Shown piece by piece: positions 14,041 through 16,377 of a stretch of DNA of 64,000 nucleotides; position 1 is the stretch's first letter, and each line of letters begins with the position of its first letter. A program made the translations under genes and the position numbers. The notes beneath the pieces were generated by a model. The model was not told where the DNA came from, made no database searches, and saw only the letters and a list, made by a program, of their open reading frames with translations. This DNA comes from a virus. The stretch lies in IMG/VR virus record IMGVR_UViG_3300045125_000101, positions 7,823 to 71,822 of that record. One strand, given 5' to 3'.

Positions 14041-14295
14041 TCAATAAATCCAGATTTGCACAAAGTATTGATCATTATGGCTATATATCATATATTCGCC
14101 ATCATAACCATCCTCGTCATAAACAGGGCTGAAAAACAGAATCTTGCCAGTTTTGGCACTTTGAATAACAACGCCAGCCCAGCCTTTGACAGCAGATGTA
14201 TTGCCCACTTTGATGAGTTTGCTGTTTAGAGTAGAACCTTTGTTGCCCTTCCATTCAAACGAAGTAGAGCAGTAAACTGGAATATCTATCATCAT
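14041..14295 (-). CDS. hypothetical protein
   Basis: Intact ORF with own promoter. Confidence 0.6.
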   Translation of the reverse strand: MMIDIPVYCSTSFEWKGNKGSTLNSKLIKVGNTSAVKGWAGVVIQSAKTGKILFFSPVYDEDGYDGEYMIYSHNDQYFVQIWIY

Positions 14296-14352
14296 TGTGC
14301 AGTCAGTATTTCAGATTTTTATAGAAAGTCCAGCAAAAAGTGCGTGTATTTT

Positions 14353-14365
14353 TATCAAGCACTTA
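14353..14365. promoter_or_regulatory. IHF-consensus site
   Basis: TATCAAGCACTTA matches WATCAANNNNTTR. Confidence 0.55.
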
Positions 14366-14412
14366 CGAAAGTTTGACGGCTTGATTTTTTTAATAAGCCC
14401 GGTAGACTGATT

Positions 14413-14500
14413 GCATAGTCGAGAGTAGGAGAAAATTCCGAAGAGACTAGTTGCGGAGATGAGCCTCCTAGAATGTGGGACCGACGCCTACGCAGATGCA
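14413..14500 (+). ncRNA. putative structured ncRNA, copy 1
   Basis: Promoter TTGATT-N16-TAGACT (14381-14408); no ORF; shares motifs with 15190-15280. Confidence 0.5.
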
Positions 14501-14566
14501 TAAAAGTGTTGAGAATCATTCTCTAGTGCTTTGCTGCTTTACTTTTTATAAAAAATCATTCAGTAT

Positions 14567-15106
14567 ATGTCCATTATGGAGACCATCACCATCAAGCCCG
14601 ACCACTTGCGGGACTTCACGGGCTGCGTCCTGAGCACCCGTGAGTACAACGGGTACCACGACAGCGACTTTTATGCCACGGTCTGGGACGAGGAGGCGGG
14701 CTGCGTGCGTGAGATCGAAGACGGCACCACGCGGGCATATGCCCCGAGCAAGTATCACCGGGCCGACGCCAGCGACGAGGTTCGGGCCAAGGCTCGCGCC
14801 TGGTATGCCTCCAGTCCCGACATCCGCAAGGGTGCCAAGGTTCGTCTGGAACGTGCGTTCTCTGCCATCCGAGTGGGTGACACGGTCGAGGTCGTGGCTG
14901 GTCGCAAGATTGCCAAGGGAACGGTTGGCGAGGTTGTCTGGGTTGGTCGTGACAACTTCAACCCCAAGGCGTTTCGGGTTGGTCTGCGGCTCGCCTTTGG
15001 CGGTTTGCGGGTGTTTACGGCAATGGGCAACGTGGAGAAGCGCAACTACAACCCGCCGACCGAGGCGGAAATCGACGCCGAGGTTGCTCGCTGCAATCCT
15101 TATTGA
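14567..15106 (+). CDS. hypothetical protein with a KOW/SH3-like segment
   Basis: Intact 179 aa, GC-rich; GDTVEVVAGRKIAKGTVGEV; own promoter and terminator. Confidence 0.8.
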   Translation: MSIMETITIKPDHLRDFTGCVLSTREYNGYHDSDFYATVWDEEAGCVREIEDGTTRAYAPSKYHRADASDEVRAKARAWYASSPDIRKGAKVRLERAFSAIRVGDTVEVVAGRKIAKGTVGEVVWVGRDNFNPKAFRVGLRLAFGGLRVFTAMGNVEKRNYNPPTEAEIDAEVARCNPY

Positions 15107-15129
15107 GGTTCAACGAGTTATGAAAATCA

Positions 15130-15154
15130 AGCGAGGCCACAAACCTCGCTTTTT
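15130..15154 (+). terminator. Rho-independent terminator
   Basis: AGCGAGG-ccacaaa-CCTCGCT followed by a T-run. Confidence 0.8.
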
Positions 15155-15189
15155 GCTCGACTTTTTATAATAACCTGTCATTCTTTAGA

Positions 15190-15280
15190 CACTCAAGGGA
15201 CAGTGCCAGAAGTGCCCTCCCGAAGAAGTGACCGATCAAACGGAACGAATAGGGGACCGGAGGCTACGCGGATATATCCA
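15190..15280 (+). ncRNA. putative structured ncRNA, copy 2
   Basis: Promoter TCGACT-N16-CATTCT (15157-15184); no ORF; shares motifs with 14413-14500. Confidence 0.5.
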
Positions 15281-15359
15281 AAATTTTGACTACCCCTGAC
15301 TCAAATAGTATAGCATAGTTTTATAAAAAGTTCAAGGAAAAAATAAATCAAATAATCCT

Positions 15360-15517
15360 GTAAGGTATTGTAAATCAAATACCTTTGTGGTTATTAAAGT
15401 GTTGACTATCAAGCAGTTACTACTTTTGTAAGTACCTGATAATCAACAACTTATAACCATCTGATAACCAACCACTTACATTATCAACTACTTATGTAAT
15501 TGTGTAAGTGCTTGATA
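15360..15517. promoter_or_regulatory. cluster of IHF-consensus sites in both orientations
   Basis: Exact WATCAANNNNTTR at 15407, 15441, 15482 and (reverse) 15505; near-matches at 15373, 15429(rev) and 15466. Confidence 0.65.
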
Positions 15518-15518
15518 A

Positions 15519-15980
15519 TCAGAATTCTGCATCCTGTTGAGCAGCAACAGGTACCGCAGGCTTCTTGAGCTTTGCCATAGCTTTTGCCGCTGTAGCAGCA
15601 AAGTCAGCATCACTCATAACACTATCACTGGCAACATCTTCTGTAGATGTAGCAACAGCATTATCACTCTTTTTCTTGCTGCCAATAAAGTTGATGCGTT
15701 CGCATACAACGCTAAAAGCAGTGCGCTTGATATTATCACTACCAGTATATTCACGACTCTTTAGTCTTCCGACCACAGATAGTGAATTGCCCTTCTTAAC
15801 ATACTTGCTAACAAACTCACTTTGTTTGTCCCAAGTATCTACATCAATATATAGCACCTCTTCATCGTTCAGAGGATTATTGACGGCCAGTCTTACAGTG
15901 GTAATGTTCTTACCAGTTTGTGTTGTTCTAGTAACAGGGTCTGCTACAGCATTGCCTGCTAGGATGATTACGTTTAACAT
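15519..15980 (-). CDS. ssb: single-stranded DNA-binding protein
   Basis: Bacterial-type SSB OB-fold (N.VIL.GN...DP...LAVN...KG..L.V.GRL..R.Y); acidic tail DAEF. Confidence 0.93.
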   Translation of the reverse strand: MLNVIILAGNAVADPVTRTTQTGKNITTVRLAVNNPLNDEEVLYIDVDTWDKQSEFVSKYVKKGNSLSVVGRLKSREYTGSDNIKRTAFSVVCERINFIGSKKKSDNAVATSTEDVASDSVMSDADFAATAAKAMAKLKKPAVPVAAQQDAEF

Positions 15981-16319
15981 ATTAGTATAGAATTGATATA
16001 CCTTTATTGATATATCAGCTACTACTATACAGGTATTTACCTAAGTGTCAATATATAAGAAATAATAGTAGGGGGGGGGGTACCTAAATTTTTAAATCTT
16101 TATATATGATTTATCGCACGATAATCGTCTGATATATCTCCTATATCGTCCGAATTAATCTAGGTGGGGGTACCTAAAAATTGATATAATCGTCGTATAT
16201 CATTAGAGCTAAAAGCAATAGCGCCAAACCTGTAAACACAAAAATCATATAGGGGGGTACCTAAATTTATATATTAGATATATTAGCCAAAACATCATTG
16301 ATTTAGAATATACTAAAAC

Positions 16320-16352
16320 AAAAACCCCCACTGTGTTTAGTAGTGGGGGTAG
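16320..16352 (-). terminator. Rho-independent terminator
   Basis: ACCCCCACT/AGTGGGGGT hairpin with a T-run on the minus strand. Confidence 0.7.
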
Positions 16353-16377
16353 CTAAATTTATACTTCTATATATGTG

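Follow-up and report, generated by a model that had tools for sequence, protein, structure and literature searches.

A previously undescribed family of structured RNAs adjoining the helicase and ssb genes of uncultured freshwater phages

Among described systems, those closest to the locus reported here are the put elements of phage HK022, the ColE1 RNA I/RNA II pair, the origin transcripts of phages T4 and T7, and the PeSL cassettes of T4-type phages. HK022 carries two diverged copies, putL and putR, each behind an early promoter. PeSL cassettes (described in PMC2839356 and PMC4122927) occur in tens of copies per genome and are concentrated in hyperplastic regions. Here we analyzed a 64,000-nt stretch of phage DNA (positions 7,823 to 71,822 of IMG/VR record IMGVR_UViG_3300045125_000101; hereafter the window), in which the intervals 14413–14500 (copy A) and 15190–15280 (copy B) are homologous, free of open reading frames (ORFs), and each preceded by a sigma70-type promoter. 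Both belong to a structured RNA family that is real, previously undescribed, and carried by a group of uncultured freshwater phages; few non-coding RNAs are known from large uncultured phages, and this adds a well-populated family. Our favored explanation, to which we give a probability of roughly 0.6, is that the two intervals are diverged paralogues of a phage-specific small structured RNA gene family, an early protein-binding RNA linked to the replication module; we infer both the protein binding and the link to replication control.

The two copies lie in an island (14296–15519) bracketed by minus-strand gene blocks, with the helicase operon starting at 14295 and ssb ending at 15519. The island holds a single plus-strand ORF, gene X, at 14567–15106. 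When copies A and B were aligned, the match was best toward their 3′ ends, where a gap-free 27-nt block, GAAUNNGGGACCGNNGNCUACGCNGAU, is common to 14471–14497 and 15247–15273 (21/27 positions identical). At three or fewer mismatches, this block has two sites in the window versus 0/100 dinucleotide shuffles, and just two sites across the whole 138-kb record. Comparison of homologs revealed no conserved ORF on either strand of the elements. Antisense coding was considered as a candidate: stop-free frames exist on that strand, but they occur in three different frames among the homologs, often without a start codon, stem from a C/U-rich composition, and encode no conserved peptide. Since these frames shift between homologs and the indels are not multiples of three, coding was rejected. 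A preliminary description of this DNA had proposed two homologous, promoter-driven, non-coding elements with ordered shared motifs; the shared block, the promoters, and the lack of a conserved ORF uphold that proposal, and the motifs are real, the 27-nt 3′ block being the strongest.

The family was assembled from several searches. A search with the protein of the enclosed gene X found two viral contigs (62–65% identity) that keep the same layout, i.e., promoter, RNA-like element, gene, terminator, promoter, and RNA-like element. A covariance model made from five copies (R1) detected further copies beside the helicase homologs of more distant phages, some of them much shorter. Because all copies found with R1 have the 3′ block, a 34-nt covariance model of that block was built (R2). 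Metagenome loci were then fetched by the neighboring helicase, a selection that is blind to the RNA sequence. This yielded 80 loci, whose samples were freshwater, lake, and in some cases marine, with approximately 95 R2 matches. After removal of duplicates and three coding false positives, the search for further homologs had produced 76 distinct members. They fall into seven architectures, and the block AGGGUAGGGGACC-N5-CURCNCARAUU is present in 76/76. Types 1 and 2 are long forms, and types 3 to 6 have other hairpins ahead of the same block. Copy A is a type-1 long form on the plus strand (14413–14500; R1 score 88.9 bits), for which there are 11 distinct type-1 relatives, and its 3′ block (14471–14497) scores 34.5 bits with R2. 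Copy B (15190–15280, also plus strand) is a type-7 RNA with a different architecture that lacks the 5′ domain of copy A and retains the same 3′ block (15247–15273); it scores 34.7 bits with R2 and only 22 bits with R1.

Genomes hold one to three copies, always adjoining helicase/SSB genes and on the strand opposite the helicase. Whole-record scans of five records of 68–297 kb found 2, 2, 2, 1, and 1 copies, all at the helicase/ssb locus; the two-copy records are this one and two relatives, and the single copy of the fifth record is weak. In a distant clade, up to three copies were found per helicase-anchored locus, either two or three in tandem or flanking the helicase operon on either side. 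Gene X is missing from the complete 297-kb relative, where one type-2 copy stands alone and the order beyond it is convergent promoter, AT-rich direct repeats (about 400 nt), terminator, and ssb. No Rfam 15 family matched at gathering or permissive thresholds, even with a 116-nt slice at E ≤ 10, in agreement with the preliminary description, in which no known RNA family had been recognized. The block pattern has 12 matches in 185,579 cellular genomes, close to the chance number; they score 17–24 bits versus 33–48 bits for true members, the best one lies in a coding region, and the same search found neither a host copy nor mimicry of a CRISPR repeat. Two other markers used in viral contigs, a stricter version of the block pattern and the promoter conserved downstream, recovered only contigs already known. 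An exact scan of viral contigs for the 3′ motif of the preliminary description returned three in-frame coding matches in GC-rich phages, which we set aside as chance. Judged by the helicase, cultured phages are all distant, the best identities being 21–24% over most of the protein, with short pieces reaching 33%.

We looked for covariation by aligning the 28 distinct long forms to R1, with one gap moved, and found compensatory base-pair changes that support a fold. The 5′ domain of copy A is a hairpin (14416–14449, plus strand) made of two covarying helices, P1 (14416–14420 with 14445–14449) and Pa (14428–14431 with 14436–14439). Four positions of P1 are paired in 28/28 long forms, with pair types CG/AU/GC, GC only, GC/UA, and UG/CG/UA. 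In Pa, 83/84 cells are paired, and an AU to GC switch divides the long forms 18:10, with both types represented. Sliding the partners of P1 and Pa as a control reduced pairing to 8–54%. Between P1 and Pa, immediately flanking Pa, lie AGUA (14424–14427) and GAA (14440–14442), both of which are invariant in 28/28 long forms. AGUA opposite GAA is a listed sarcin-ricin/loop E sequence; the rule asks for a helix flanked by AGUA (or GGUA) in one strand and by GAA (or AAA) in the opposite one (PMC1865062). The AGUA and GAA around Pa follow this rule and are thus predicted to form a sarcin-ricin/loop E motif. In the 23S rRNA sarcin-ricin loop and 5S rRNA loop E, AGUA likewise forms the 5′ strand and GAA the 3′ strand, and the two flank a short distal helix; such motifs are typical protein-docking sites. 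Sarcin-ricin/loop E is a motif and not a family, and it is assigned here by its sequence; the distal helix in our RNAs is 3–5 bp long and carries a 4–9-nt loop, not a GAGA tetraloop, and types 3–7 lack the motif. The preliminary description had spoken of conserved purine-rich junctions, an apt phrase for AGUA and GAA on either side of a short helix.

Downstream of the 5′ domain, every member has a middle hairpin, Pb, whose length and sequence are free. In copy A it spans 14455–14468 (GGAG, loop AUGAGC, CUCC), and compensatory changes were found in the Pb of types 2 and 4 and in two further type-4 hairpins. Within types 1, 2, and 4, there are 3, 3, and 5 compensatory pairs, respectively. The predicted pairs of types 1 to 4 comprise 98 G.U cells versus 6 A.C cells, and this excess places the structure on the plus strand of the window, opposite the helicase. 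In copy B, a hairpin pairs GGGA (15197–15200) with UCCC (15218–15221), a stem that varies from GGGA/UCCC to GGGGA/UCCCC in two type-7 relatives, and Pb is formed by CCG (15232–15234) and CGG (15241–15243). Finally, the 3′ block can form a GUAG/CURC hairpin (Pc) with GGGGACC in its loop, and both arms are conserved. When mutual information was used to seek partners for the variable N5, only the split between types emerged. The stems drawn in the preliminary description were borne out in part. Its third stem in copy B (CCG/CGG) is the real middle hairpin, but its first (GUAGG/CCUAC) and second (UUCC/GGGA) use bases of the loop E motif and Pa; although compatible with the sequence, they are excluded by the covarying Pa, and the second mismatches at one position in 9/28 long forms. 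A long closing helix seen in one type-3 subgroup, CAAGAUCG with CGAUCUUG, was also discarded, as it is not conserved in other type-3 copies.

A self-cleaving ribozyme or a ligand-sensing riboswitch had been suggested from the purine-rich conserved junctions. In addition, GGAAGUAGG…CCGAA recalls what we take to be the E-loop of the glutamine (glnA) aptamer; in glnA RNA and the Downstream-peptide motif, the E-loop is presumably built, as here, from GGAAGUAGG and CGAAGG-like strands. However, glnA RNA (RF01739) and Downstream-peptide RNA (RF01704) stayed unmatched in three permissive scans (E ≤ 10), the remaining architecture is unrelated, and downstream there is no nitrogen-related or otherwise regulated gene and no expression platform. 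Twister, pistol, and hatchet ribozymes were likewise without a match at E ≤ 10. The same holds for the hammerheads (Rfam clan CL00010), scanned on window 14250–15450 and on the copy of relative L007, and the sequence has no CUGAUGA, which agrees with the earlier remark that the hammerhead core is not satisfied. Moreover, other types carry an entirely different 5′ domain, and the sole invariant part is the 3′ block, which shows no covariation. With no sign of a ribozyme or a riboswitch, we find either hardly credible.

A sigma70-like promoter precedes the element in all types. For copy A, the promoter read from the sequence is at 14381–14408 on the plus strand, with the −35 region TTGATT (14381–14386), a 16-nt spacer, and the −10 region TAGACT (14403–14408); transcription is expected to start at approximately 14413–14416. 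The corresponding −10 position reads TGnTAGACT or TAGAAT in L007, L008, and the metagenome relatives. The promoter of copy B, also read from the sequence, is at 15157–15185 on the plus strand and consists of TCGACT (15157–15162), 17 nt, and a weak −10 region, ATTCTT (15180–15185); the relative L020 shows the same TCGACT-TTTTATAA upstream context. Across the family, a TG-extended −10 region (TGnTAnnnT) was found in 68/76 members at a type-specific distance, with the −10 region lying 23–27 nt from the block in type 3, 62–66 nt in type 4, and mostly 67–73 nt in type 2. The −35 region of the distant clade is TTGAGG, TTGTGG, or TTGACY. The mean promoter score of the 76 members is 9.8 versus 7.8 ± 1.05 for shuffled flanks. 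A strict consensus promoter scan called neither the copy A nor the copy B promoter. Just past copy A, at 14511–14523 on the plus strand, is a small hairpin (GAGAA-UCA-UUCUC, read from the sequence) followed by a U-rich stretch, which may be a weak 3′ end signal. It was not called by the terminator scan, and a GAGA..UCUC hairpin is seen again 3′ of the gene-proximal copies in relatives. Of the marks of an independent bacterial-type small RNA gene, the elements have a promoter of their own, and no canonical intrinsic terminator was found.

Every copy starts a few nucleotides from its promoter, and this would suit a promoter-proximal element that acts in cis on the nascent RNA, for instance a put-like antiterminator or a signal for processing or stability, and modifies the polymerase or the 5′ end of the early RNA to which it belongs. 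The likeness to putL and putR, compared by description only, extends to two diverged copies per phage behind early sigma70 promoters and to small multi-stem RNAs. However, put acts in cis on downstream genes, and most copies here have no downstream gene on the same strand: ahead of copy B and of the type-2 copies lie AT-rich DNA and the ssb 3′ end, the type-3 copies run antisense into genes, and gene X is served by a promoter of its own directly at the start codon. We therefore hold a cis element to be highly improbable.

Copy B is faced by a convergent promoter, P_rev. The promoter scan placed it at 15307–15335 on the minus strand (TTGAAC, 17 nt, TG-TATACT), directed back through copy B. It belongs to a family of strong minus-strand promoters (TTGACT, 17 nt, TG-TATACT; scores 10.5–13.5) carried by a near-invariant element, TGACTMCCCCTGACTCAAATAGTATAGCA (window 15287–15335; L007 3745–3775; L008 3700–3730). 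In the near clade, this element comes after the gene-distal copies; it follows 14/15 type-2 copies and two of the three type-7 copies, as well as type-1 copies that gene X does not directly follow. The distant clade lacks it. P_rev lies 32–112 nt past the block and ranks with the best-conserved sequences of the region; the element is often doubled in tandem (L035, L036, L042, L046, L052, and L064). By sequence, P_rev and the RNA element would give a ColE1-like sense/antisense layout in the near clade.

Such a layout could act as a cis-antisense or convergent-transcription switch, in which the plus-strand RNA is antisense to the P_rev transcript, and pairing or polymerase collision tunes the helicase-side operon. 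The logic would be that of ColE1 RNA I/RNA II, R1 CopA/CopT, and phage 186 pR/pL, and multi-hairpin RNAs of about 100 nt are typical of antisense regulators. The regular position and strong conservation of P_rev speak for this explanation, but types 3–5 of the distant clade keep the block and have no convergent promoter, their scores being at the shuffled background. P_rev therefore cannot be the core function. Furthermore, gene X and its terminator separate the P_rev of the window from any minus-strand gene, leaving a short non-coding transcript, and pairing leaves the invariant sequence block unexplained. Taken together, we consider an antisense switch unlikely.

The favored explanation, an early protein-binding RNA, accommodates these observations as follows. 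Each copy would be transcribed early from its own promoter by the host sigma70 RNA polymerase. The long forms would fold into a 5′ hairpin, in which P1 and Pa enclose the loop E motif (AGUA opposite GAA), then a middle hairpin of free length and sequence, and would end in the near-invariant 3′ block, able to show GGGGACC in a hairpin loop. Other members, copy B among them, would exchange the 5′ part for different hairpins and keep the block. The loop E motif and the invariant block both have the look of surfaces recognized by proteins, and we therefore take the RNA to be the RNA component of an early ribonucleoprotein. A design in which the 5′ hairpins can be exchanged while one 3′ block stays invariant is unusual; it points to a tag for a protein or to a common signal for processing or recognition. 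The family has covariation support, a defined promoter, and a fixed address by replication genes, and is ready for Rfam-style curation and bench study.

Several features fit an RNA of the replication module: the fixed address by replication genes, the orientation to AT-rich repeats, the early sigma70 promoters, the protein-docking motif, and the invariant sequence tag. A direct role in control of the adjacent replication region or origin is the likeliest function, although we hold it to be less probable than not; transcription of the RNA would then activate or prime the AT-rich repeats that it faces, or the RNA would regulate this process. We give a similar chance to a role in trans at some other place. 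The locus resembles ColE1 RNA I/RNA II and the T4 or T7 origin transcripts in having a promoter-driven, multi-hairpin RNA of about 100 nt that lies by replication genes and points toward AT-rich repeats. The near clade further shares with ColE1 a convergent promoter approximately 100–150 bp away, for which a fully overlapping antisense partner is predicted, and the block holds a G run, as do primers that form persistent hybrids. In contrast to those systems, the GC skew here is without an origin signal, distant copies have no convergent promoter and some have no AT-rich target, and there is no sequence similarity. The fullest version of this idea would be a replication-control RNA of a new kind for large phages, an early ribonucleoprotein RNA made by sigma70 polymerase, whose block is recognized as a tag by a replication or transcription protein of the phage, whose swappable 5′ hairpins, the sarcin-ricin-like module among them, tune this recognition, and which marks or primes an iteron-like AT-rich origin, with the convergent promoter as a ColE1-like antisense brake; we regard this version as doubtful. 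If the link to the AT-rich repeats is true, it would give a first handle on the start and timing of replication in this freshwater phage clade.

A number of results weigh against the favored explanation. Pc is not backed by any compensatory change, so the 3′ hairpin is unproven, and the conservation of the block could equally reflect a site at the DNA level. The folding energies of single sequences are no better than those of shuffles (z −1.0 to +0.7), and the sequences within a type are closely related, so there are few independent compensatory events. No canonical plus-strand terminator that would define a 3′ end was found, only small hairpins near U-rich runs. In one metatranscriptome (word depth of about 2, contigs only), transcripts were found on gene X and ssb and none on the elements. 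With regard to replication, some copies of the distant clade are intergenic, aimed antisense into genes, and have no AT-rich region downstream, and no origin-type extremum at the locus emerges from the cumulative GC skew, which for both this record and the complete 297-kb relative follows a monotonic course with a plateau in the early region.

Gene X, the plus-strand ORF between the two copies (14567–15106, 179 aa in the ORF list), is GC-rich (0.60–0.66 versus about 0.40 for the genome), which marks it as an acquired, foreign gene. Its real start is likely the second ATG (14576), giving METITIK. An early-type promoter of its own, read from the sequence (14538–14566, plus strand; TTTACT, 17 nt, CAGTAT) and belonging to the motif family TGCTnnACTTTTTAT, abuts the start codon, and the mRNA is therefore probably leaderless or near-leaderless. 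The gene is ended by a stem-loop with a T run (15129–15157) that is terminator-like on the minus strand also. The model of the gene X protein has a pLDDT of 85 and gave weak matches to SH3/KOW/Tudor-like barrels (E about 1e-3, TM about 0.3); there was nothing significant in Pfam, only unnamed families in PHROGs, and no hit in PDB sequence and atlas searches. At the nucleotide level, gene X is 81–82% identical over 74–80 nt to hypothetical genes of Caulobacter jumbo phages (Bertelyvirus), and a 42%-identity homolog occurs in a GC-rich jumbo phage.

In the near clade, the gene between two RNA copies nearly always belongs to the gene X family (13 relatives); it is absent from L020, L067, L068, and L054. 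A minus-strand ORF accompanies gene X in three of these 13 relatives, whereas in L052 the interval between the copies holds an ORF of this kind only. This extra ORF (136–146 aa), which follows the type-1 copy (L035 1700–2250, L036 4940–5490, and L052 710–1270), has its own bidirectional terminator and P_rev unit and replaces gene X in L052. The preliminary description had pictured two elements merely flanking a lone gene, a view that does not hold, as relatives have a single copy and no gene. For the same reason, we read the pair in the window as a tandem RNA array into which the foreign gene X appears to have been inserted. By analogy with the T4-type PeSL cassettes, the flanking repeats may give gene X a route in and out. 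The locus illustrates the capture of a foreign gene between repeated RNA genes.

This arrangement also raises the question of whether the elements are PeSL-type DNA cassettes, that is, DNA serving mainly as portable promoters and insulators and as patches of homology through which genes are shuffled, with any RNA as a by-product. As in PeSL cassettes, a sigma70-like early promoter (TG-extended in the 68/76 members noted above) is fused to a conserved stem-loop sequence, and direct, homologous, promoter-bearing repeats flank a non-essential foreign gene that varies among relatives. Sister phages lack the gene and have one repeat only, and a chimeric repeat remains in one, L066, whose copy downstream of the gene joins a type-1 5′ part to a type-2 block. 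The topology is that of PeSL-mediated excision and insertion in RB49 and phi1 (PMC2839356). However, PeSLs number about 50 per genome and stand directly upstream of a Shine–Dalgarno (SD) sequence and ATG, with the stem-loop serving as a terminator, whereas the elements here occur in 1–3 copies confined to the replication module. Their structured part lies downstream of the promoter and is a multi-hairpin sequence of 50–110 nt with RNA-type covariation, compensatory changes, and strand-specific G.U pairs. Most copies have no following gene; instead of an SD sequence and ATG, a promoter, AT-rich DNA, or an antisense gene comes directly after, and no terminator was called on the plus strand. Recombination between copies may also hold without being their function, and we give a purely cassette-like role little credence.

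L009, a GC-rich 210-kb phage contig with a distant gene X homolog, has five sub-threshold Hammerhead_II matches (19–28 bits versus a gathering threshold of 37) on one strand of a 2-kb stretch (468–558, 825–912, 1452–1539, 1729–1814, and 2100–2178). This stretch may be an array of type II hammerheads.

Several repeats were observed around the RNA locus. Direct and inverted repeats of about 18–25 nt (GTAAGTGCTTGATAATCA and variants) occupy 15400–15526, between copy B and ssb, and look like iterons or regulator sites; a further repeat of the GTAAGTGCTTGATAATCA type is upstream of copy A (14352–14366), and L020 has other AT-rich direct repeats at the equivalent position (1300–1560). A second motif, GGGGTACCTAAA, has nine sites at one or no mismatch (16077–16357, 17318, 18652, 22357, 47570, and 58978) versus 0.14 expected, and four of its copies are just upstream of ssb, spaced by about 90 bp. 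Part of it, UACCUAAAUU, resembles the 3′ half of the RNA block (CUACCCAAAUU), and a type-3 variant in L075, L076, and L086 has GGGGUACUCUAAAA within the block; it is possible that GGGGTACCTAAA and the RNA block share a protein-recognition motif. In the distant clade (L018 1170–1200 and 960–990, and most type 3–5 copies), GTTAACGNTAACG-like repeats (GTTATAACGTTAGCGTTAC and TTTATCGCTAACGC), which are absent from the near clade, come directly after the block. Finally, the slope of the cumulative GC skew changes from flat to steadily negative at about 22–24 kb of the record (about 15 kb of the window), and the GC content falls from about 0.45 to about 0.35 at the same point, indicating that the RNA locus sits at the boundary of two genome composition regimes.

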